Of a DNA stretch of 32,000 nt, positions 10,915 to 32,000 are shown in pieces. The first letter of the stretch is position 1, and the number at the start of each line of letters is the position of its first letter. This DNA comes from Cupriavidus necator (GTDB taxonomy: Bacteria > Pseudomonadota > Gammaproteobacteria > Burkholderiales > Burkholderiaceae): contig NZ_CP066019.1 in the NCBI RefSeq assembly GCF_016127575.1, positions 240,001-272,000 of the forward strand, in the 5' to 3' direction. The notes under the pieces were generated by a model. That model did no database searches and was not told where the DNA came from. It worked only from the letters and a program-made list of their open reading frames with translations. A program made the position numbers and the translations under genes.

Positions 10915-10941
10915 GCTCGCTCCCGTGCCGGTCGATGGTGA

Positions 10942-11328
10942 CTAGCATAGTAGTGGGAGTGCGGGACCGCCGATACGGTTGGGACGGGTGCGTGCGTGCG
11001 AGCGGTCGCGGCGCCCATCAGTTGCGCGGTCCGCCTCATCTAGCGCATGGAACCAGGCGTGATCGCTGCCATCGATCTGCACCGGTTCGCTCCAGACTTG
11101 CTGTTCGACACCGGCTTCCGGGTGTCCTGGAAGCTGCGCCCACCCAAAAGCATCAGCCGTGCAACCGGCGGGAATGTCTATGATCCGGCATACGAAGACT
11201 GGCGAAATCTTGATGTCGTGCCGCTCGCGCAGGGTCTCGCAGGCCAGCATTGGGCCGAAGTCGGCGTAGCTGTCGCGAATCAGGCCGCGCACGCGGGATT
11301 CCAGGTCGGGCGGTTGGGCCCGTTACTC
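10942..11328 (-). mobile_element. Decayed transposase gene (ISNCY-like integrase-core family), internally deleted and lacking an N-terminus
   Basis: The translation LESRVRGLIRDSYADFGPMLACETLRERHDIKIS, then ...VQIDGSDHAWF, resembles two conserved blocks of ISNCY-type transposases. The roughly 60 intervening residues are missing or garbled, and a TAA stop lies just upstream. No inverted repeats were identified. Confidence 0.5.
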
Positions 11329-11437
11329 CCCTTGGTGGGAGGGAAGTCGATCTTCTAGCATAGATACGCTGGCCAAGCGACCGACAAGGCAGGGAGCGCT
11401 TGATATGACGGTTACGAAGCTTCAGGAGGTAATGGAT

Positions 11438-11740
11438 ATGTCTGCCACAAGGATTGAGATGTGCGACCAGGATGGCGACGGGGTATTGACCATTCGAGAT
11501 GACGGCGCCGCATTTTCAGGAGTCGCGCTTGAGCTTTCGAATCTATTCGGTGAAGACGTGGTCGCGGATCTTGATAAGCACCAGTTGCTCAAATGGTGCG
11601 AGATGGTCGCGGCCCATCTTCGCAACCAAGGCGTTATGCCAGGCGAGTGCGCTCCGGAGGGCTACGTCAACAAAACTAGTCAAAGCCGGACGAAAGAGCA
11701 GCCTGGCGTCGAGGAGCTTTTGCAGTCGGCGGCATCTTGA
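11438..11740 (+). CDS. Hypothetical small acidic protein (orphan)
   Basis: A strong AGGAGG SD (11424-11429) lies 8 nt before ATG 11438. The region is visibly AT-richer than its flanks. I recognise no family. Confidence 0.4.
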   Translation: MSATRIEMCDQDGDGVLTIRDDGAAFSGVALELSNLFGEDVVADLDKHQLLKWCEMVAAHLRNQGVMPGECAPEGYVNKTSQSRTKEQPGVEELLQSAAS

Positions 11741-11989
11741 CTCTGGCGAACGCGAGACGCTTTGCTGGCAACAGAGCGTCTTTTCGTTGGCGCATTGCTT
11801 AACAATCCCCACCAGCCAGCGATTCCGGTCGACGGCCGTTTCCGATTGCAGATTCAACCGGTCGATGCAACAGCTTGATGGAATCGTTCAGCCGGTACCG
11901 GCCGGATGCCCTCCGCGAAACTGCCGCCCGATGTTGCCGCCTTGAACCCCAAGGCCGGCCCACTACTGCGTTGCGATGGCCAGCACGCC

Positions 11990-12454
11990 TCAGGCGACCG
12001 CACCCGGCGGCGCATGGCGTGCCAGGAAGCGGTCCAATTGCCCAGCGAACGCCTTGCTGTCCTGCTGGGCGTACGCTGCCGGCCCGCCGGTATCAACGCC
12101 TGAACTGCGGAGTTGTTCCATCACCTCGCGCATGGTCAGGCGCTCCTGGATGTTCTCACGGCTGAACCAGCTTCCTCGCGGGTCGAGCACATAGGCGCCC
12201 TTGTCAAGGGCGGCGGCGGCAAGAACGATGTCCGCCGTAATGACGAGGTCCCCGCTGCTGACCAACTCGACGATACGGTCATCGGCGACGTCGAAGCCCG
12301 CAGGCACTTGCAGTGACTTGATGAAGCGCGAAGGCGGCGTGCGCATGTACTGGTTGGCAACCAGCGTGACGCACACTTCGACACGTTGTGCGGCCCGATA
12401 CAACATTTCCTTGACGACAACCGGGCAGGCGTCTGCGTCAACCAGTACTTGCAT
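11990..12454 (-). CDS. yaiI: YaiI/YqxD family protein (UPF0178 / DUF188)
   Basis: MQVLVDADACPVVVKEMLYRAAQRVEV..LVANQYMRTPPSRFIKSLQVPAGFDVADDRIVE...GDLVITADI.LAA...LTMREVMEQLRSSGVDTGGP aligns along its whole length with E. coli YaiI as I remember it. Confidence 0.85.
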   Translation of the reverse strand: MQVLVDADACPVVVKEMLYRAAQRVEVCVTLVANQYMRTPPSRFIKSLQVPAGFDVADDRIVELVSSGDLVITADIVLAAAALDKGAYVLDPRGSWFSRENIQERLTMREVMEQLRSSGVDTGGPAAYAQQDSKAFAGQLDRFLARHAPPGAVA

Positions 12455-12584
12455 CGCGATACTTCCAATGGGGGGAGGGAACGCTCATCTTACTGCCTGC
12501 GCGTCCCGTTCGTTTGTTATTCGGCCAACCCCTGGTCCGGCGGTAGCCGGCCCGAACGCACCTTCGCCTTTACTTCCCGCGCCG

Positions 12585-12710
12585 CACCGTCGTGAGGTGT
12601 TCGCCAAAGAAATCATCGACGACTTGCGCGGAATCCTGGCCAACGTCTGCACCGAAGTAGAGGCGGACATTGTGGAAATCGATGGAGAGGACGATCACGT
12701 CCACCTGTTG
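12585..12710 (+). mobile_element. Remnant of an IS200/IS605-family Y1 transposase (TnpA), about 42 codons of the central core only
   Basis: HRREVFAKEIIDDLRGILANVCTEVEADIVEIDGEDDHVHLL matches the YRR-x-VF...E-x-NGE-x-DHVHLL core. Both the N-terminal HUH region and the C-terminal Tyr region are absent. It abuts the 3' end of the permease gene. Confidence 0.55.
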
Positions 12711-12744
12711 GCAGGATGTACCCGCAAGCCTCGCCGGCGCCTCT

Positions 12745-13533
12745 TCACGAATGCCGGCCACCCCTCATGATCGCGCTGGCCGTGTCGACCACGGCCGCCA
12801 GGGCAAGCATGGCGATGATCACCGTGCAAGCCTGGGGCAGATGGAACAGGGACAGCTCGAAATACAACATCTGCCCAAGCCCGCCGGCGCCGACAAAGCC
12901 AAGGATTGCCGCCACGCGGATATTCGTTTCCCAGCGGTACAGGATGTAGGCCAGAAACTGGGGCCATACGCAGGGCAGCGTCCCGTACATGAAGACCAGC
13001 GCGGCAGGAGTGCCCCCTTCCATCAGCGCGCGGGCGGGTGCGCGCGGCGCATTCTCCAGCGCCTCGGCGAACAGGCGACCGAGCACGCCCGCGGTATGCA
13101 GTGCCAGGGCGAGGGTGCCGGCAAACGGTCCAAGGCCGACTGCGAGTACGGTCAGGGCAGCCCATACCAGCTCGGGGATCGAGCGCAACAGGTTCAGTAG
13201 CAAGCGCGACAAGGCGCGCAGCGCATCGCCGTAGAGCCCGGAAGCCGGTAGTGCCAGGCCAAAACCCAGCACCGCCGCACACAGCGTGCCCACCGCGGAA
13301 ACCGCGAGCGTTTCGAGCATGCTGCCAGCGGTTCTGGCCAAAAAAGCGGGTGACAGCTGCGGCGGGAAGAACGTCAGCAGGAAGCGCGCCATCTCGGCTG
13401 CAGCGTCCGCGGAAAAAAGCTGACCCAGATCGAGCGACAGATACGCGAAGCTGCCCGAAACCGCGGCGGCCACCGCGATCAGGGTGAGCAGGCAGCGCAT
13501 GCAGAATTGAGCGGCCTTGACCTTGTGCGCCAT
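12745..13533 (-). CDS. phnE: PhnE-type ABC transporter permease (second permease of the selD-linked transporter)
   Basis: 262 aa and multi-TMS. PhnE-like blocks are FFPP..SP.FL, LETLA.S..GT and RSIPELVWA. The EAA-like region is EALENAPRAPARALMEGG, followed by YRWETNIR. Confidence 0.85.
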   Translation of the reverse strand: MAHKVKAAQFCMRCLLTLIAVAAAVSGSFAYLSLDLGQLFSADAAAEMARFLLTFFPPQLSPAFLARTAGSMLETLAVSAVGTLCAAVLGFGLALPASGLYGDALRALSRLLLNLLRSIPELVWAALTVLAVGLGPFAGTLALALHTAGVLGRLFAEALENAPRAPARALMEGGTPAALVFMYGTLPCVWPQFLAYILYRWETNIRVAAILGFVGAGGLGQMLYFELSLFHLPQACTVIIAMLALAAVVDTASAIMRGGRHS

Positions 13534-13536
13534 GAT

Positions 13537-14358
13537 TCAGTCGAGCAGCTTGCGCAGGTGCGCGCTGAGCGCGTCCGCCAGCAGGACCAGCAGCAGGAAC
13601 ACTAGCAGGATGGTCGCGGCTTCCCCGCCGTTGAGCAGTTTCATGGCCTGGTCCATCAACTGCCCAAGTCCGCCGGCGCCAACGAAGCCCATGACCACGG
13701 AAGCCCGGATGGCACATTCCCAGCGGTAGACGGTGTACGAGACCAGCTCCTGCGAGGCATGGGGAAGCAGCCCATAGAACAGTGCCGCCAGGCGCCCGCT
13801 GCCGCTGCCAAGCAGGGCATCCACGGCGCGTGTGTCGCTGGATTCGAGGATTTCCGCATAGACCTTTGCCAGCATGCCGCCATAGGTGATGGCCAGGGCG
13901 AGCACGCCCGCCGCCGCCCCCAGGCCGAGGGCGCGCACGAAGACCAGTGCCCACACCAACTCCGGCACCCCGCGCAGCAGCAGCACCAGGGCGCGCACGC
14001 CAGCGCGCACCGCCATGCGCGGCTTGCGTCCCCGGCCGGGGCCGATGCGCGACACCGACAGGCTGCCCGTCAAGGCCACGGCCAGAGGTGTTGCGATCAC
14101 AAAGGCGAGCGCAATGCCCGCGGTGGCGATCGCCAGCGTTTCCAGCGTGGCGTTGACCACAAGCCCGAGGAATCCGGGCGAAACCTCGGGGGGAAGGAAG
14201 TTGCGCACGAAGGCGCCCATCACCTTGAGGTTTCCGGTGTCGAACAAGGCTGAAGGGCTGAACCGGGACAGCTGCAACAATGGCCACAGCAGAAGCAGCG
14301 CGAGCACCAGGCCGCTGGCGCGCCGCAGCGCCTGGGGATCGCGCGGGTGGGCGGTCAT
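13537..14358 (-). CDS. phnE: PhnE-type ABC transporter permease (first permease)
   Basis: From ATG 14358: [69 protein letters not shown]. The ATG overlaps the phnC-like stop (ATGA). The 410-aa track ORF is an upstream extension. Confidence 0.85.
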
Positions 14359-15197
14359 CGGCACGCCGGCCTGGGTTGGGTGTCGCCACCGATGGCGGCG
14401 CTCGCACCTGCCGCGATGCTCGTCAGGGCCTGGCTGCCCTGTACCGGTGGCGATGCGCTTTCGGAGGCATAGAGTTCGCGCAGCAGCGCGTCGGTGACGC
14501 GCTCGGCCGGCAGGTCGAAGGCGATCTCGCCCGCCTTCAGGCCGACGATGCGGGGAAACCAGCGCAGCGCCAGATCCACTGCGTGCAGGCTGGCGACCAG
14601 GGGCACCGCGCGTGTATCCGCTTCCCTGCGCAGCTCGCCCAGGGTGAGGTTGGCCAGCACCGGGTCCATTGCCGAGACCGGTTCGTCCGCCAGGATCAAT
14701 TCCGGGCGCTGGTAAAGCACGCGGGCGACGCCCACGCGCTGCAGCTGACCGCCCGAGAGCTGGTCGCACCGGTCGAACAGGCGGTCGGCCAGCTCAAGGC
14801 GGGCGAGCTGTTCGCCGGCACCATCGATGTCTGCCGGATAGACCAGCGACAGCAAGGATTTCCAGGCGGGCCAGATGCCCAGGCGGCCGGCAAGGATGGC
14901 CGTGACCACGCGCTGGCGCGGCGGCATCGGCGGCGCCTGGTGCACCATGCCGATGCGGCAGCGCAACTGCTGCAGGCGTGCGGCGGATACCGCCCAGGGG
15001 CTTTGCTCCAGCACCTCCACACGGCCCTCGCTTGGCCGCAGCGACGTTGCCAGCAAGCGCAGCAAGGAGGTCTTGCCGGCTCCGGACGGACCGATGACGG
15101 CGATGGGCTCGCCGCGGCTGGCCGCCAACGTGATCTGGCTGAGCGCACGCTGTCCGTTGGCGTAACTGACGCTGGCGGCGTCCAGGCGGAAGCTCAT
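14355..15197 (-). CDS. phnC: PhnC-type ABC transporter ATP-binding protein
   Basis: Walker A motif [10 protein letters not shown]-loop, signature LSGGQLQRV and Walker B LILADEP. 280 aa. Confidence 0.9.
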
Positions 15198-15207
15198 CAG
15201 ACCGGCA

Positions 15208-16059
15208 TCACCGGATCAGGCCCGCGGCCCGGGCTGCGGCCTCGATGCCGTCGTAGTTTTCGGGCCGGGTGGGAATGTACCTGGCGGTCCGCTGCAATGC
15301 CATGATCTCGCGCTGCTCGGGATTGGCCGGGTCCAGCCGCAGGAATGCTTCGGTCAGCTTCTTGCGCAAGGCGGGATCGAGCCCGCCGCGCACGGTCCAG
15401 TTGTAGTCGTAATAGGGCGGTGTGACAGCAAATACCCTGACCTTGGCGGGATCCACCTTGCGCTGCTCCACCAGCTTGTCCCACACCGAGGCATTGAGCA
15501 CGCCGGCGTCGGCCCTGCCGGCCTGCACGAAAGCCACCGTCGCATCGTGGGCGCCCGAATAGGCGAGCGTCTTGAAGTCCTTGTCCGGGTCGATGCCCGC
15601 CTGCAGCAGGAAGTGCCGTGGCATCAGGTGGCCGGAGGTAGAGGACGGCGCGCCGAAGACGAAGGTGTGGCCTTTGAGGTCGGCCAGTGACTTGATCGCG
15701 CTGTCGGCGGTGATGAACTTGCTGGTGAAGGCGGCATCTTCCTGGCGCTGGACGATGGGGATGGTGGCTCCCTTCGTCCGGATCTTGCTCTGCACATAGG
15801 TAAAGCCGCCCAGCCACGCCATGTCGATCTTGCCGGTGGCCAGCGCTTCGACCACCGCAGCGTAGTCCGTGACGGGCACGAACTTCACCTTCATGCCGGT
15901 TTCCTTCTCCAGGTAGTTGCCGAGCGGCGCGAACTTGCGCTGCAGTTCGGTGGGGGACTCGTCGGGAATGGCCGAGACCTTCAGGACAGCCTGGGCACTG
16001 GCGAGGCCGGCAAAGCCCAGCAGGGTCAGCGCGGCAAGGCGCTTAAGCAACGGCAACAC
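15208..16059 (-). CDS. PhnD-family periplasmic substrate-binding protein (candidate selenate/selenite-binding clade)
   Basis: Signal peptide [24 protein letters not shown], then [60 protein letters not shown], a PhnD fold. The GTG start at 16059 has an AAGGAG SD at 16066-16071 inside the 3' end of selD. Confidence 0.85.
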
Positions 16060-17116
16060 GGGCGGCTCCTTGCGTCATTTCTCCGATCACGGCAGCGTCT
16101 GCGAAGCCTTCCCGGTTAAAGATCTCCAGGACCTCGTCCACGGCTTCCGGTGCGCACGACACCAGCAAGCCGCCGCTGGTCTGGGGATCGGTCAGCAGTG
16201 CCTGCTGGCTTGGCGTGACCGACGTGGACAGGTCCACCTCGCTGCCGTAGCTGACCCAGTTGCGCCCCGATGCGCCGGTCACCAGCCCTTCGGCGGCCAT
16301 GCGCTCGACCCGCGGCAGCAGTGGAATCCGCGCCATGTCCAGCCGCGCGCCGACGCCCGCGCCACGACACAGCTCCAGCAGGTGGCCGAGCAGGCCGAAG
16401 CCGGTCACGTCGGTCAGCGCGTGGACAGCCGGCACTTCGGCCAGCAGTCGGCCGGGCGTGTTGAGTTTGGTGGTGCAGGCAATCAGTTCCTGATAGCCGG
16501 CCGCGTCGAGCTTGTCCTTCTTCACCGCGGCGGACAACACGCCCACGCCCAACGGCTTGCCGAGGATCAGCTTGTCGCCCGCCTTGGCGCCGCTGTTCTT
16601 CTTGACCCGGTTCGGGTGCACCAGACCAAGGACCACCAGCCCGTAGATCGGCTCAAGGGAATCGATGGTGTGGCCGCCCGCGACCGGGATGCCCGCCTGG
16701 GCGCAGATCGATTCGCCGCCTTCGAGGATCTTGCCGATGACCTCAGGCGGCAGCTTCTCGATGGGCATGCCGACCAGCGCCAGCGCCATGATCGGGGTTC
16801 CGCCCATGGCATAGACGTCGGAGATGGCGTTGGTGGCGGCGATACGCCCGAAATCGTACGGATCGTCCACCACCGGCATGAAGAAGTCCGTGGTGGCGAT
16901 CAGGGCCTGGCTGTCATTGAGCTGGTAGACCGCCGCGTCGTCGCTGGTCTCTTTGCCGACCAGCAGTGCTGCCGGAGCAGCGAAGCCGACCGAATTCCTT
17001 AGGATTTCAGAAAGCACACCGGGGGCAATCTTGCACCCACACCCGCCGCCGTGGGAGAAGGCGGTGAGCTTGATCTTTGCGTTGTTTGGCTGGTCCACTG
17101 CGGGGCTCCGAGTCAT
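16043..17116 (-). CDS. selD: Selenide, water dikinase (selenophosphate synthetase), Cys-type; SenC-equivalent
   Basis: N-terminal KLTAFSHGGGCGCKIAPGVL matches the E. coli SelD Cys17/Lys20 loop; the codons lie at 17030-17041. An AIR-synthase-like body follows (DDAAVY, ATTDFF, GGHT). The ATG overlaps the upstream stop (ATGA at 17113-17116). Confidence 0.9.
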   Translation of the reverse strand: MTRSPAVDQPNNAKIKLTAFSHGGGCGCKIAPGVLSEILRNSVGFAAPAALLVGKETSDDAAVYQLNDSQALIATTDFFMPVVDDPYDFGRIAATNAISDVYAMGGTPIMALALVGMPIEKLPPEVIGKILEGGESICAQAGIPVAGGHTIDSLEPIYGLVVLGLVHPNRVKKNSGAKAGDKLILGKPLGVGVLSAAVKKDKLDAAGYQELIACTTKLNTPGRLLAEVPAVHALTDVTGFGLLGHLLELCRGAGVGARLDMARIPLLPRVERMAAEGLVTGASGRNWVSYGSEVDLSTSVTPSQQALLTDPQTSGGLLVSCAPEAVDEVLEIFNREGFADAAVIGEMTQGAARVAVA

Positions 17117-18108
17117 TCTGGTTTCAAGGCGTCGGCGACAAGTTTACTCACTTCCGCCCGTTCCCGCGCCGGCGCGAACAGCGGCGCGCGAATTGCGCAT
17201 TGCTGCCGCAGGCGGTCCAGGAACCCGGCATCCCGGCTGGTGCGTTCCAGCACCAGCGCCAATTGCGCGGCGTCACCCAACGGAAAATAGCCTTCGTAGT
17301 CACGGCCCAGCATGCCGACGTTGCCCGGGATGCGGCTGGCCAGCACCGGCACGCCACTGGCGACGGCCTCGATGATCACGTTGGCGCCGCCTTCCATGGC
17401 GCTGGAGATCACCATGGCCTGTGCTTTCCGGATGTGCTGCAGGGTTTCGTCATGGGGCAGGTTTCCGAGCCAGACATAGCGCCGCACGCCGGGCCAGGCT
17501 CGTGCTTCCAGCGCCAGGGCCTCCTGCCGATAGGCGTCATCCAGCGCGCCGCCGATGTGGATCAGGCGCACGCGCGAATCGTCGGGAAGCAGCGAGAGCG
17601 CGCGCATGGGCGTCAGCGGGTCTTTTTCCGCCCGCATGTGGCCGACCAGCACGACGTCGAAGTGATTCTGGCGGGGCGCCGCGGGCGCGCATGCCGGGGC
17701 AGACTGGTAGATCACCCGGCACCGGGCGCGATGCGCGGCCGCCAGTTCGGCCAGCCCTTCGTCCTGCAGCACCACCAGGTGGGTGGCGAGTTCGAGCGAG
17801 CGCTGGGCCGATGCATCGGTGCGGATGTCGCGGTACAGATCGGTGCCGGTCAGCACGACGATCAGCGGACGATCCGGACAAGCCTCGGCAAACCTGGCGA
17901 TGGACTCGGCCGAGCGCCGGGCGTGCAGGGCGATCAGGCAGTCGGGCAGGGCGCCGCCCTGGCTGGCCGTCGACCATTCAGCGGCCAGCGTGACATCGTA
18001 GTCCCCCTGCAGGAACCGGGCCCAGCGATTGGCGGTTTGCCAGTTGCCATTGTTGGCTTTGCGCAGCGCTGGACTGATAATCGCGACGGTGGCCTTGGGA
18101 GGACGCAT
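17113..18108 (-). CDS. senB: GT-B fold glycosyltransferase, selenosugar synthase SenB-like
   Basis: From ATG 18108: MRPPKATVAIISPALRKANNGNWQTANRWARFL. The C-terminal GT1/GT4-type motif is SSAMEGGANVIIEAVASGVPVLASRIPGN. It is translationally coupled to selD. There is no obvious SD, and the alternative GTG at 18192 has none either. Confidence 0.75.
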   Translation of the reverse strand: MRPPKATVAIISPALRKANNGNWQTANRWARFLQGDYDVTLAAEWSTASQGGALPDCLIALHARRSAESIARFAEACPDRPLIVVLTGTDLYRDIRTDASAQRSLELATHLVVLQDEGLAELAAAHRARCRVIYQSAPACAPAAPRQNHFDVVLVGHMRAEKDPLTPMRALSLLPDDSRVRLIHIGGALDDAYRQEALALEARAWPGVRRYVWLGNLPHDETLQHIRKAQAMVISSAMEGGANVIIEAVASGVPVLASRIPGNVGMLGRDYEGYFPLGDAAQLALVLERTSRDAGFLDRLRQQCAIRAPLFAPARERAEVSKLVADALKPE

Positions 18109-19309
18109 GATGACAGGTTCTGAGGGGGCGGCAGCAAGAAGGATAAACAAGTTCGAGCTGGATGCGGCGTTTGCCGATGCGCACCGGCGCACCTGGGCCG
18201 TGCTTGAGGAGCTGTCGCCGTCCCAATGGCAGGTTCCTTATGACGCGGGAATCAATCCGCCCTTGTGGGAGTATGCCCATATCGCCTGGTTCACGGAGCA
18301 ATGGGTGCTGCGGGAGCCACGTGCCGGCGAGGACGGCTGCTGGGTGGCCAGCCTCCCGTCCATGCTGCCGGACGCCGACCGCCTCTTCGATTCCATGCGC
18401 GTCGCCCACCGGGACCGATGGCATCTTGCGCTGCCCCGGCTCTCCGAGATTCGCGACTACGCAGCCGCCGTGCTGGAGCACGTTCGCGCCAGGCTCGCCA
18501 CGTCGGACGATACCGACGCTGCGCTCTATTTCTTCCGGCTCGCCTTGTTCCACGAAGACATGCATGCGGAGGCGCTGACCTATATGCGCCAGACGCTCGA
18601 TTATCCGCTGCATGCCCCGCTCGGCATGCCTTCCATTGCGCCGGGCGCCGGCTCGGCAGCCGCAGGCGGCGACACGTTCGCAATGGGGTCGCCCATCGGG
18701 GGCGACGGGTTCGTCTTCGACAACGAGAAGTGGTCCCACCCGGTCCACATCGCCCCTTTCCACATCGATCGCACTTGCGTCAGCAATGCCGCATTTGCGG
18801 AATTCGTGGCCGCCGGCGGCTACCGCGACCATCAATGGTGGTCAGACGACGGACGCGCATGGCTGCAACAGAGCAGGCTGGCGCATCCGGTGCGCTGGCG
18901 CCGGACAGCCGGCGGCACCGCGGGGCAATGGGCGTTGCGCTGGTTCGGGCAGTGGGTGCCGCTGCCGCCCGAACAGCCGGTGTGTCATATCAATGCCCAC
19001 GAGGCGGAAGCCTATTGCCGCTGGGCCGGCAAGCGCTTGCCCACGGAAGCCGAATGGGAGTATGCGGCAACGCATGACCTGATCCGCTGGGGTAGCGCCG
19101 TGTGGGAATGGACGGCTGATCCTTTCGTGCCCTATGCAGGGTTCTCGCCCGATCCCTACCAGGAATATTCCGCCCCCTGGTTTCACACGCATCGCTCGGT
19201 TCGCGGCGGATCGTTCGCCACCCATGCCCGCATGCAGCATCCTCGCTACCGGAACTTCTACCTGCCGCACCGCAGCGACCCCTTCGTCGGATTCCGCTGC
19301 TGCGGTTGA
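18107..19309 (+). CDS. senA: EgtB-like non-haem-iron sulfoxide/selenoxide synthase homologue (DinB_2 + FGE-sulfatase domains), SenA-like
   Basis: A GGGAGG SD at 18097-18102 precedes ATG 18107/18110. The DinB-type helix bundle carries a His (AHIAWF, 18278-18280) and an HxxxH motif (FHEDMHAE, 18551-18565). The C-terminal FGE-sulfatase fold contains HEAEAYCRWAGKRLPTEAEWEYAA and RGGSF...FVGFRC. Confidence 0.8.
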   Translation: MMTGSEGAAARRINKFELDAAFADAHRRTWAVLEELSPSQWQVPYDAGINPPLWEYAHIAWFTEQWVLREPRAGEDGCWVASLPSMLPDADRLFDSMRVAHRDRWHLALPRLSEIRDYAAAVLEHVRARLATSDDTDAALYFFRLALFHEDMHAEALTYMRQTLDYPLHAPLGMPSIAPGAGSAAAGGDTFAMGSPIGGDGFVFDNEKWSHPVHIAPFHIDRTCVSNAAFAEFVAAGGYRDHQWWSDDGRAWLQQSRLAHPVRWRRTAGGTAGQWALRWFGQWVPLPPEQPVCHINAHEAEAYCRWAGKRLPTEAEWEYAATHDLIRWGSAVWEWTADPFVPYAGFSPDPYQEYSAPWFHTHRSVRGGSFATHARMQHPRYRNFYLPHRSDPFVGFRCCG

Positions 19310-19367
19310 GGAAGGAGGGCGTCTTCACGGTGATATCAACGATGCGGCTGACACCGCCCTGACCACC

Positions 19368-19694
19368 CTAGCGGCGGGCCGACCCACCAACGCGAAGTGC
19401 ATTCACCACCAGCGAAAAGGCTGGCGATGCCTGGCGGCTGGGGTAGTACAGGTGGTAGCCCGCAAACGGAGGGCACCAGTCTTCCAGCACGCGTACCAGC
19501 CGACCTTCCTCGATGTGGGGTGCAAATTCCTCTTCCGGGAGGAAGGCGACGCCCAGCCCCTCAAGCGCGGCCATCACGATATGGGGCGTGCTGTTGAAAA
19601 CGGCCTGGCCGTCGTCGCGCACCTTCAACTGACGGCCACGGCGCTCGAAGTCCCAGACGGACAAGCCCGCATGCATCGCCGATGCCGCGCGCAT
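19368..19694 (-). pseudogene. Truncated LysR-family regulator (C-terminal effector-domain fragment only)
   Basis: WDFERRGRQLKVRDDGQAVFNSTPHIVMAALEGLGVAFLPEEEFAPHIEEGRLVRVLEDWCPPFAGYHLYYPSRQASPAFSLVVNAL is a typical LysR C-terminus. The upstream part of the 222-aa ORF is a non-homologous shadow of the opposite-strand gene, and there is no HTH. Confidence 0.6.
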
Positions 19695-19815
19695 GAGGTA
19701 TCTTTTACAAGGGCGAGGCACGCCAGCCGCCGGAAAGGCCCGGCGGGACTTGTGCCAGGGCCGTGGATCGGTTCTTGCATGGCAGGCTGTGCCCGAGCCG
19801 TGACAGGAGCGCGCC

Positions 19816-21264
19816 ATGTCCGAAGCACTTCGATCCTCGCTTTGCCGATTCTTCATCGCCTGCTGCCTGGGTATCGCAGCTTGCGGAGGGGGCGGGGGAG
19901 ACGGGGGCGGTGACAGCGCCACCGGCACGCTGACGCTCTCCATCTCCGGCCTGCCGTCCGGGACGTCGGCGGCCATCACGGTATTGGGGCCCGGCCAGTT
20001 CCGCCAGACCGTGACCCAGTCGACCACGCTGTCCAACCTGGCTGCTGGCAGCTATACCGTCAGTGCCGCCAGCGTGCTGGCTGGCAGCACGCTCCTCAAG
20101 CCGCAGCCGCCTTCGCAGACCGTGGCGGTGACCGCGGGCGGCAGTGCTTTGGCAAGCGTGGAATACGGCTCACCGGAAACAGTGCAGTTGTCGCTGACGC
20201 AGGTTGCCGGCGGGTTATCCGAGCCCATCTTCCTGACCGCGCCCCCCGGCGATCCGCGCCTGTTCGTGGTCGAGCGGGCCGGCCGCATCCGGATCGTGCG
20301 CAACGGCGCATTGGTCGCTACGCCGTTCCTCAATATCGCCGCGCTGACGACGACCGATGGCGAGCGCGGGCTGCTGTCGATGGCGTTCGATCCCAACTAT
20401 GGGACCAACGGCCGCTTCTACGTCTATTACACCGACACCAATGGGGCCATCACCATCGCCCGCTACAACGTATCGGCCGCGAATCCGGATATCGCCGCGG
20501 CATCCGGCACCGTGCTGCTGTCGATTCCGCACGGCACCTTCTCCAACCATAACGGCGGCCAGCTCGCGTTCGGCCCGGACGGCATGCTCTATATCGGCAC
20601 GGGCGACGGCGGCGGCGGTGGCGATCCGTCGGGCAACGCCCAGAACCCGGCAACGCTGCTCGGCAAGATGCTGCGCATCGACGTCAGCGGGGCATCCGGC
20701 TACGGCTTGCCTGCCGGCAATCCCTTCGTCGGCCAGTCCGGCAGCCGCGGCGAAATCTGGGCTCTCGGCCTGCGCAACCCGTGGCGGTTTACGTTCGACG
20801 CCGGCTTGCTGTATATCGCCGATGTCGGCGAGGACCAGCGCGAGGAAGTCGACGTGGCGCCGGCCACCAGCGCGGGCCTGAACTACGGCTGGAACCGGAC
20901 CGAAGGCACCGCCTGCGTGGGTGCGGCCACGTGCGACAAGACCGGGCTGACCATGCCGGTCTTCGAATACGGCCACGAAGCGGGCGCTTGTGCCATCGTC
21001 GGTGGCTATGCGTACCGGGGCAGTGCCAACCCGGTGCTGCATGGGCGGTACTTCTATTCCGACCTTTGCACGGGCAAGCTGCTGAGCTTCATGTATCGCG
21101 ACGGCGTTGTCGCAGAACAGGTCGACTGGAACGTCACGATCCCGGGCAGTGTGTTCTCGTTTGGCGTGGATGACGCGCAGGCGCTGTACGTGCTGGCCGA
21201 TCCGGGCACGTCGGCGACGAGCGGGCGGGTGTATCGGATCGATGTGTCGGACGGCACGCCTTAA
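19816..21264 (+). CDS. PQQ-dependent sugar dehydrogenase (soluble glucose/sorbosone dehydrogenase beta-propeller family), lipoprotein with an extra N-terminal beta-rich domain
   Basis: Lipobox LGIAAC followed by a Gly-rich linker. Propeller motifs include PRLFVVERAGRIRIV, ERGLLSMAFDP, HNGGQLAFGPDGMLYIGTGDGG, LLGKMLRIDV, GLRNPWRFTFD and YIADVGEDQREEV. Confidence 0.85.
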   Translation: MSEALRSSLCRFFIACCLGIAACGGGGGDGGGDSATGTLTLSISGLPSGTSAAITVLGPGQFRQTVTQSTTLSNLAAGSYTVSAASVLAGSTLLKPQPPSQTVAVTAGGSALASVEYGSPETVQLSLTQVAGGLSEPIFLTAPPGDPRLFVVERAGRIRIVRNGALVATPFLNIAALTTTDGERGLLSMAFDPNYGTNGRFYVYYTDTNGAITIARYNVSAANPDIAAASGTVLLSIPHGTFSNHNGGQLAFGPDGMLYIGTGDGGGGGDPSGNAQNPATLLGKMLRIDVSGASGYGLPAGNPFVGQSGSRGEIWALGLRNPWRFTFDAGLLYIADVGEDQREEVDVAPATSAGLNYGWNRTEGTACVGAATCDKTGLTMPVFEYGHEAGACAIVGGYAYRGSANPVLHGRYFYSDLCTGKLLSFMYRDGVVAEQVDWNVTIPGSVFSFGVDDAQALYVLADPGTSATSGRVYRIDVSDGTP

Positions 21265-31360: not shown

Positions 31361-32000
31361 TCAACGCCGTTGCAGGCCGCCAGACCTGTGCTTCCTGACC
31401 GCACGCAGCACCAGGCCCGCCAGCACCGCGACGACCGCCAGGATGCCGATGGCGACAAAGAAAGGTAAGGGCCGGTCGATTGCCAGGCTTTCCCCGGCGA
31501 CGACGATACCCAACGCATAGCCCGCTTCGGCGATGGCCATCGCGGCCAGGAATTTCCGGAAGGGGTAATGCATGGAGCCGAACAGATAACCGGGAATTTC
31601 CGACGGAACCGCGATACAGAACAGCAGCACCGCCCAGAATTTCATGCGCTGCGATACGTAGTCCTGGTATTTCGCGAGCTTGTCCTCGTAACCGCTACGG
31701 GCGAGCAATGGATAAGCCAGGCGGCCGATGCCGAAGGCGGCCACAGCGCCCAGCAGCCAGCCGCCCCAGAGCAGAACAATGGTGAGCGGCTTGCCCCACA
31801 CCTCGGTGGCCGGCGGCACCAGGACCACGCTCGAGGCGAAGGCGAGCATGGCAGACACGGCCGAGAACAGGAAGAAGACCAGCGCGCCTGCCGCGGGGTG
31901 CTGTTCCATCGTCGCCCGCGCCCAATCGATGGCCTGGTCGACGAAGGCCTTGAACGGAGGCGACAGGACGACCAGGCCAATCAGCACCGTCGCGGCGCCG
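31361..32000 (-). CDS. TVP38/TMEM64 (DedA/VTT-domain) family membrane protein; the 5' end may lie beyond the window
   Basis: Multi-TMS ORF containing FASSVVLVPPATEVWGKPLTIVLLWGGWLLGA...IAVPSEIPGYLFGSMHYPFRKFL. The reading frame stays open to the window edge upstream of the GTG at 31987. Confidence 0.65.
   Translation of the reverse strand, partial: GAATVLIGLVVLSPPFKAFVDQAIDWARATMEQHPAAGALVFFLFSAVSAMLAFASSVVLVPPATEVWGKPLTIVLLWGGWLLGAVAAFGIGRLAYPLLARSGYEDKLAKYQDYVSQRMKFWAVLLFCIAVPSEIPGYLFGSMHYPFRKFLAAMAIAEAGYALGIVVAGESLAIDRPLPFFVAIGILAVVAVLAGLVLRAVRKHRSGGLQRR

Follow-up and report, generated by a model that had tools for sequence, protein, structure and literature searches.

A PhnD1-type ABC importer encoded with selD and senB in Cupriavidus necator as a candidate route of selenite supply

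What does the ATP-binding cassette (ABC) transporter encoded together with selenium genes in Cupriavidus necator bring into the cell? The transporter lies in a 32,000-nucleotide stretch of this species (contig NZ_CP066019.1, positions 240,001 to 272,000; hereafter the window), which maps to chromosome 2, and its four genes follow senB and selD in a single operon. We favour, with moderate confidence, the reading that it is a PhnD1-type ABC importer supplying selenite to SelD, for selenoneine synthesis here and, elsewhere, for other selenium traits. The entry of selenite and selenate is mostly ascribed to sulfate, phosphate or other non-specific carriers, and to our knowledge no dedicated high-affinity bacterial selenium uptake system has been demonstrated. 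The selenium-transport hypothesis for this operon is not new. It already exists at the level of annotation, because RefSeq gives this C. necator substrate-binding protein (SBP) the name 'putative selenate' and because Kayrouz et al. 2022, who defined senABC, noted the transporter beside many sen clusters. An ABC ATPase gene was also listed among the recurrent neighbours of orphan selD genes (Peng et al. 2016), and selenite export has been put forward, as speculation without data, in one paper that takes up the RefSeq name.

Six intact open reading frames (ORFs) lie closely spaced on the minus strand from 18108 to 12745 (Table 1), with a GC content at third codon positions of 0.79-0.87. The senB stop and the selD ATG overlap in ATGA (17116-17113), and the SBP gene starts at GTG 16059, giving a 17-nt overlap with selD. 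The SBP stop (15210-15208) is followed by a 10-nt gap and the ATPase ATG (15197), the ATPase stop and the permease 1 start overlap again in ATGA (14358-14355), and a 3-nt gap separates the permease 1 stop (13539-13537) from the permease 2 ATG (13533). An earlier sequence-only reading of the window had described an SBP start 17 nt within selD with an internal AAGGAG at 16066-16071, the two short gaps, the ATGA at 14355-14358, and a compact senB-selD-SBP-ATPase-permease-permease operon, and all of these agree exactly with the six packed ORFs. The start of the SBP gene itself is ambiguous among GTG 16059, TTG 16056 and TTG 16050, each inside selD; public annotations of 283, 282 and 280 amino acids correspond to these three codons, of which only GTG 16059 and TTG 16056 are suitably spaced from the AAGGAG. 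This six-gene layout is one of co-transcription, probably with translational coupling. It is not unusual, because overlaps and short gaps are ordinary in operons. The selD/SBP overlap is restricted to C. necator-like Cupriavidus (loci L001, L004, L081 and L082), and other lineages have selD-SBP spacers of 29-200 nt or a different gene order.

Table 1. Positions of the operon genes and associated features in the window.
Feature	Coordinates	Strand	Remarks
senB (selenosugar synthase)	17113-18108	-	operon gene 1; NCBIfam TIGR04348 (SenB) 471 bits, cut-off 300
selD / senC (selenide, water dikinase)	16043-17116	-	NF002098 549 bits, cut-off 299; TIGR00476 434 bits; ends in TAA
periplasmic SBP, PhnD1 / TIGR04553 type	15208-16059	-	TIGR04553 400 bits, cut-off 250
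ABC ATPase, PhnC-like	14355-15197	-	TIGR02315 210 bits, under the equivalog cut-off of 266
permease 1, PhnE-like	13537-14358	-	TIGR01097 194 bits, under the cut-off of 217; Pfam BPD_transp_1
permease 2, PhnE-like	12745-13533	-	TIGR01097 223 bits, over the cut-off of 217; operon end
Shine-Dalgarno sequence AAGGAG of the SBP gene	16066-16071	-	within selD codons; 6 nt before GTG 16059
senA (selenoneine synthase)	18107-19309	+	NF041186 (SenA) 528 bits, cut-off 420; Pfam DinB_2 and FGE-sulfatase
promoter-like site ahead of senA, TTGGCT, 17 nt, GATAAT	18053-18081	+	consensus scan; inside the first senB codons

The PhnDCEE-type architecture proposed from the sequence is borne out by NCBIfam and Pfam scores and by motifs. 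The SBP belongs to Pfam family PF12974 and carries a Sec-type signal peptide of 24 residues (16059-15988) without a lipobox Cys; on the PhnD equivalog TIGR03431 it scores 173 bits, below the cut-off of 261. The ATPase has a Walker A motif (GPSGAGKT, residues 36-43), an ABC signature (LSGGQ, 147-151), a Walker B motif (LILADEP, 167-173) and an H-loop (SLH, 203-205), while permease 1 has an EAA-like loop from residue 169 and permease 2 an EAA loop, EALENAPRAPARALMEGG, at residues 157-174. A secreted SBP, the ATPase motif set and EAA-loop permeases are the marks of a Type I ABC importer, and the region 16059-12745 is thus predicted to encode an SBP-dependent ABC importer of the PhnD1 / TIGR04553 clade.

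The PhnD clade that the sequence-only reading cited as 'putative selenate' is NCBIfam TIGR04553, on which the SBP scores 400.4 bits against a cut-off of 250. PhnD1 proteins from Synechococcus and Prochlorococcus also exceed this cut-off (339 and 303 bits), while PtxB of P. stutzeri falls under it (161 bits). Because the cut-off admits PhnD1, RefSeq calls experimentally studied PhnD1 proteins selenate binders. The accompanying statement that no substrate had been demonstrated is therefore wrong at the family level, since the structures of PhnD1 proteins are solved and their affinities for phosphite, phosphate and methylphosphonate have been determined. For Pm_PhnD, the reported affinities are 51 nM for phosphite, 109 uM for methylphosphonate and 182 uM for phosphate, and 2-aminoethylphosphonate is not bound (PMC5700983); in two Synechococcus PhnD1 proteins they lie at 1.7-2.8 uM for phosphite and 26-88 uM for phosphate (PMC10284923). 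No word beginning with 'selen' occurs in either of these two ligand papers. The best match of the SBP among solved structures is PhnD1 of Synechococcus MITS9220 (7S6G; 201 bits, 44% identity), and it is 36% identical to PhnD1 of Prochlorococcus MIT9301 (5LQ5, 5LQ8). These three structures were also the top Foldseek matches (7S6G, 5LQ8 and 5LQ5, TM-scores 0.79-0.82) of an AlphaFold2 model of the SBP (pLDDT 89.2), which has the type II periplasmic binding protein fold and lies nearest to PhnD1.

The binding pocket of the SBP was then compared with that of PhnD1. Eleven residues of the 7S6G site (D11, Y44, T65, S123-S126, H156, N174, D203 and Y204) correspond to D33, Y66, T87, S139-S142, H171, N189, D218 and Y219 of the SBP, which together with the hydrophobic wall residues I31 and F111 form a pocket of 13 residues. 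All 13 are identical to PhnD1, including the Asp and the capping Tyr. The eleven site residues are kept in 77-81 of 81 clade sequences, and D218, I31 and F111 are invariant. In this pocket, the capping Tyr219 is anchored by D33 and N189, Thr and Ser residues hold water, and the Ile and Phe are hydrophobic. Clade-specific substitutions relative to PhnD1 (E34, D65, A67, F86, A170 and N220) are confined to the second shell beside the pocket; the altered ligand-pocket residues that the sequence-only reading had proposed to look for are thus not seen, the first shell being identical to that of PhnD1.

This pocket bears on the form of selenium that could be bound. Near neutral pH, selenite is largely HSeO3-, and selenate is fully ionised, as their textbook pKa values indicate. 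In Pm_PhnD, the Asp equivalent to D218 (D205) contacts the ligand, which implies a mono-protonated anion (PMC5700983). Since D218 needs a protonated ligand oxygen, hydrogen selenite would be favoured over selenate. Of the earlier suggestion that the transporter feeds selenite or selenate to the pathway, the selenite part is thus strengthened by the pocket Asp and the selenate part is disfavoured by the same residue; judged from these pocket residues, the selenium substrate is probably selenite, and the word 'selenate' in the databases is probably a misnomer. The Tyr cap would admit only a fourth substituent of about the size of H, OH or a lone pair, so that phosphonates above methyl and organic selenium compounds would be excluded. 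Binding of phosphite by the SBP in vitro is to be expected, because its pocket equals that of the phosphite-binding PhnD1, and the importer therefore cannot be called 'dedicated', as it had been. Selenium supply, as used here, is a statement about physiology and not about exclusive specificity.

To place the operon among related loci, a scan based on the SBP was made with one genome per species, and genes within 10 kb or less were counted around the 80 closest loci (63-96% identity). Selenium genes accompany the transporter in 39 of these 80 loci, in several gene orders: senA, senB and selD in 19, senA and senB in 10, senB and selD in one, selD alone in seven, and a fused oxidoreductase-SelD gene directly upstream of the SBP gene in two. 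The fused genes, from metagenome-assembled genomes of Sulfuritalea and Accumulibacter (L058:3091-5364 and L068:7491-9911), join a pyridine-nucleotide-disulfide oxidoreductase (TIGR03169) to a SelD domain of about 290 bits. By our estimate, a single-copy gene would be expected by chance in a 20-kb interval at well below one locus in 80. In a second survey, based on senB, 16 metagenomic loci had 5 kb or more of sequence on each of the two sides of the gene, and 13 of them carried the transporter. Its position varied: it followed selD or senA, lay upstream of senA and convergent with it, or stood at a distance of 1-7 kb. These data show that the linkage between the transporter and selenium genes is non-random and repeated across many genomes. 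Moreover, because it also occurs beside selD in loci that lack senAB, and beside fused SelD, the transporter is tied to the inorganic substrate of SelD and not to selenoneine or hercynine. Selenite can serve as the selenium source, since Variovorax paradoxus given selenite produces selenoneine (Kayrouz et al. 2022), and three other Variovorax genomes (L024, L026 and L051) have the transporter beside senA. For selenoneine in Cupriavidus, nothing was found in the literature.

The earlier reading had also proposed to see whether selD-linked binding proteins form a separate clade. In a neighbour-joining tree, selenium-linked and unlinked SBPs are interspersed, and for this reason no clade-level residues separate the two. 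The neighbours of the unlinked loci, analysed by all-versus-all clustering and a Pfam scan of 65 flanking ORFs, are heterogeneous housekeeping genes except for the two fused-SelD genes, and no enrichment of Pho, phn or ptxD was seen around these loci.

Based on these results, we propose the following route. The periplasmic SBP would capture a small XO3-type oxyanion with one protonated oxygen, here presumably HSeO3-, and the two PhnE-like permeases and the PhnC-like ATPase would carry it to the cytoplasm, where thiol-dependent reduction may convert it to selenide. According to the pathway of Kayrouz et al., SenC/SelD would then turn selenide into selenophosphate, SenB would build selenosugars from selenophosphate and UDP-sugars, and SenA would couple the selenosugar to hercynine to give selenoneine. 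What the analysis itself establishes is the identity of the genes, the layout of the operon, the conservation of the pocket and the linkage across genomes, and the last three steps are taken from the literature. The operon could show how selenoneine producers obtain trace selenium, and it offers a clean, genetically tractable candidate in the model organism C. necator H16, with the expected substrate corrected from selenate to selenite. Structures and ligand data for TIGR04553 family members are already available.

Several observations weigh against this selenite-supply reading. As the first-shell pocket is the same as in Prochlorococcus and Synechococcus PhnD1, it contains no selenium-specific sequence signature. 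The Se-O bond exceeds the P-O bond in length by about 0.2 Å, and in selenite a lone pair faces the Tyr ring where phosphite has its P-H. The PhnD1 pocket is tight: with methylphosphonate, for which the Tyr cap shifts by 0.5 Å, binding is weakened about 2000-fold (PMC5700983). No selenium gene was found in the fetched sequence of 41 of the 80 closest loci, several of which have flanks of less than 3 kb, and the phnD1 neighbourhood of Synechococcus CC9311 has no selD within 10 kb. Finally, our literature search found no binding or uptake experiment with a selenium oxyanion for any member of the family.

One alternative is that the transporter is physiologically a scavenger of phosphite or phosphate, as measured for PhnD1, and that its adjacency to selenium genes is not due to selenium transport. 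Its pocket is the same as in proteins with measured phosphite and phosphate affinity, the proteins nearest to it in structure and sequence all bind phosphorus oxyanions, and about half of the closest loci lack nearby selenium genes. However, the recurrent adjacency to senAB, selD or fused SelD in several orders and lineages is hard to explain without a functional tie, and the unlinked loci show no phosphorus-gene enrichment. Nor does the window itself point to phosphorus. Family scans of its major ORFs found no C-P lyase (phnGHIJKLM), phnX/W, ptxD or htxA, as the earlier reading had stated. The sole match to the Pho box (CTGTCAT-N4-CTGTCAT) has 3 mismatches and lies inside selD, one match against 1.6 expected, so that a look for a Pho box, as that reading had advised, gave nothing beyond a chance-level match; the consensus is that of E. 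coli, and the PhoB site of C. necator may differ. In the cyanobacteria, the authors of the PhnD1 papers themselves describe the in vivo role as unclear: phosphorus limitation elicits no response from the gene, which shows no linkage to genes for the use of phosphite or phosphonates, and strains that lack ptxD are unable to grow on phosphite. We therefore consider a physiological role in phosphorus scavenging unlikely.

A second alternative is a broad importer of XO3 oxyanions (phosphite, selenite, sulfite, perhaps arsenite or tellurite) that has no single dedicated substrate and was placed beside selenium genes only because it admits selenite. PhnD1 proteins bind at least two or three related anions, the PhnD fold has given rise to arsenite (AioX) and arsenate (ArrX) binders, and selenium-linked and unlinked clade members have the same pocket. 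Nevertheless, the affinities of PhnD1 for phosphite and its analogues differ by 2-4 orders of magnitude, which means that the pocket is selective, and its close joining to selD within the Cupriavidus operon points to a specialised role. Such breadth of substrate is, in our view, improbable to much the same degree.

A bolder extension would be that the whole PhnD1 / TIGR04553 clade, including the abundant picocyanobacterial PhnDCE, acts in vivo as a high-affinity importer of hydrogen selenite, with nanomolar phosphite binding a case of mimicry. In Prochlorococcus and marine Synechococcus, SelD is fused to an NADH-dehydrogenase-like domain and ybbB is also present (Romero et al. 2005), and the same kind of fusion abuts the transporter in Sulfuritalea and Accumulibacter, which are hints in favour of the extension. 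The selD-free neighbourhood in CC9311 counts against it as well, and we hold it to be doubtful, ranking it alongside the two preceding alternatives. The present comparison also brings together two literatures without mutual citation, on the phosphite puzzle of marine PhnD1 and on selenium metabolism.

A selenate importer, in which the SBP would bind SeO4(2-) to be reduced inside the cell to selenide for SelD, appears less likely again. Selenium-gene linkage supports it equally, 7S6G holds a tetrahedral XO4 anion, phosphate, and the NCBIfam and RefSeq name is 'putative selenate'; that name is, however, the name of a hypothetical equivalog. Against selenate, the invariant D218 receives its hydrogen bond from a ligand oxygen that carries a proton, and the affinity of PhnD1 for phosphate is 10- to 3500-fold lower than that for phosphite. 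At physiological pH selenate has lost all its protons, as has sulfate, which is the classical basis on which binding proteins discriminate between phosphate and sulfate. Transport of an organic pathway compound (hercynine import, or traffic of selenoneine or selenosugar), an alternative raised in the sequence-only reading, would fit the co-location with senA and senB. It is rejected as highly improbable, because the Tyr219 cap (held by D33 and N189) leaves no room in PhnD1 even for ethyl- or aminoethyl-phosphonate, the transporter also stands beside selD alone or fused SelD without senAB, and binding-protein-dependent ABC systems are importers.

Comparison with known systems places the supposed selenite importer closest to PhnD1 (7S6G, 5LQ5, 5LQ8), with which it shares TIGR04553 membership, fold, the 13 pocket residues, a PhnC-like ATPase and a doubled PhnE. 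It differs in that ligands have been measured for PhnD1, whereas the C. necator SBP is known from sequence and model, and in that the C. necator gene is in an operon with selD and senB, whereas the CC9311 operon stands beside aminotransferase and tesA genes. In CC9311 (L162:8804-13905, CP000435), a class I/II aminotransferase gene lies 18 nt upstream of the phnD1 operon and a GDSL lipase (tesA) gene after it, and a single permease of 509 amino acids apparently consists of two PhnE-like halves fused; in C. necator, the permease is split in two genes. With the 'putative selenate' family TIGR04553, the SBP has the score, the RefSeq name and the place beside senABC in common; different from that name, its pocket favours selenite, and the characterised members bind phosphorus oxyanions.

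The PtxABC phosphite system (P. stutzeri PtxB 5O2J, Trichodesmium PtxB 5JVB) has the same fold and the same pocket logic of Ser-Thr-Ser, His and capping Tyr. The SBP is 34% identical to P. stutzeri PtxB, but PtxB has Tyr at the position of F111 (Te_PtxB Y100) and Gln at that of D218, and its genes are linked to ptxD, which the C. necator window lacks. E. coli PhnCDE (PhnD 3P7I) shares the ABC architecture and PF12974; in contrast, the match to its solved structure is weak (59 bits), and its linkage to C-P lyase has no counterpart here. The cavity of E. coli PhnD is larger and contains Asp and Glu residues that accept aminoalkyl groups (PMC10284923). The arsenite and arsenate binders AioX and ArrX have the same fold, which shows its adaptability to group 15/16 oxyanions beyond phosphorus, but identity is about 19-25% and the pockets differ. 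AioX and ArrX are sensors of two-component systems and not transporter subunits.

The rest of the window encodes ilvD, a porin, an epimerase, a GntR regulator, a lipase, a major facilitator superfamily (MFS) pump, yaiI, a PQQ-type dehydrogenase, LysR regulators, TctC receptors and dehydrogenases, all unrelated to phosphorus or selenium, and Rfam and tRNA scans of the window returned nothing. A consensus scan of 11800-19600 found no sigma-70 promoter for the senB operon, and terminator-like matches in the same interval were fewer than expected from shuffled sequence. Directly 3' of permease 2, a fragment of an IS200-like Y1 transposase (12585-12719, plus strand; PF01797 positions 15-59 of 121) is probably a remnant at the edge of a sen-transporter island. 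Further out, the stretch of about 1 kb between the MFS pump gene and yaiI (10915-11990) may be degraded mobile-element DNA; its only two ORFs (10942-11292, minus strand; 11405-11740, plus strand) match no family. At the other flank of the island, against the 3' end of senA, the ORF at 19368-20036 (minus strand) has only the C-terminal part of a LysR substrate-binding domain (model positions 116-205) and no helix-turn-helix, and looks like a truncated regulator gene. A membrane protein with a DedA/VTT domain (PF09335) is encoded 12 kb from the sen genes (31361-31987, minus strand). In Cupriavidus metallidurans CH34, a DedA protein has reportedly been linked to the uptake of selenite or to resistance against it, and the proximity here is probably coincidental.

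The sen cluster is complete, with SenA, SenB and SenC/SelD adjacent by NCBIfam scores and layout, and senA is transcribed divergently from the senB operon. Homology of senB to other loci reaches ATG 18108, and an in-frame GTG at 18192 may be an alternative start. The divergent start codons of senA and senB overlap in the palindrome CATG (18106-18109), so that there is no intergenic DNA between the two genes. The Shine-Dalgarno sequence of senA (GGGAGGA, 18097-18103), ahead of ATG 18107/18110, falls within the first senB codons, and senB lacks a Shine-Dalgarno sequence of its own. The promoter-like site ahead of senA (Table 1) is weak: the scan gave one such site where shuffled sequence would give 0.7. 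Loci of Cupriavidus and Paraburkholderia (L001-L011, L081-L089) likewise have senA and senB back to back, and the senA-senB spacing is 9-120 nt in other lineages. With no DNA between the two genes, their promoters would lie within the coding sequence of the partner, or the mRNAs would be leaderless.

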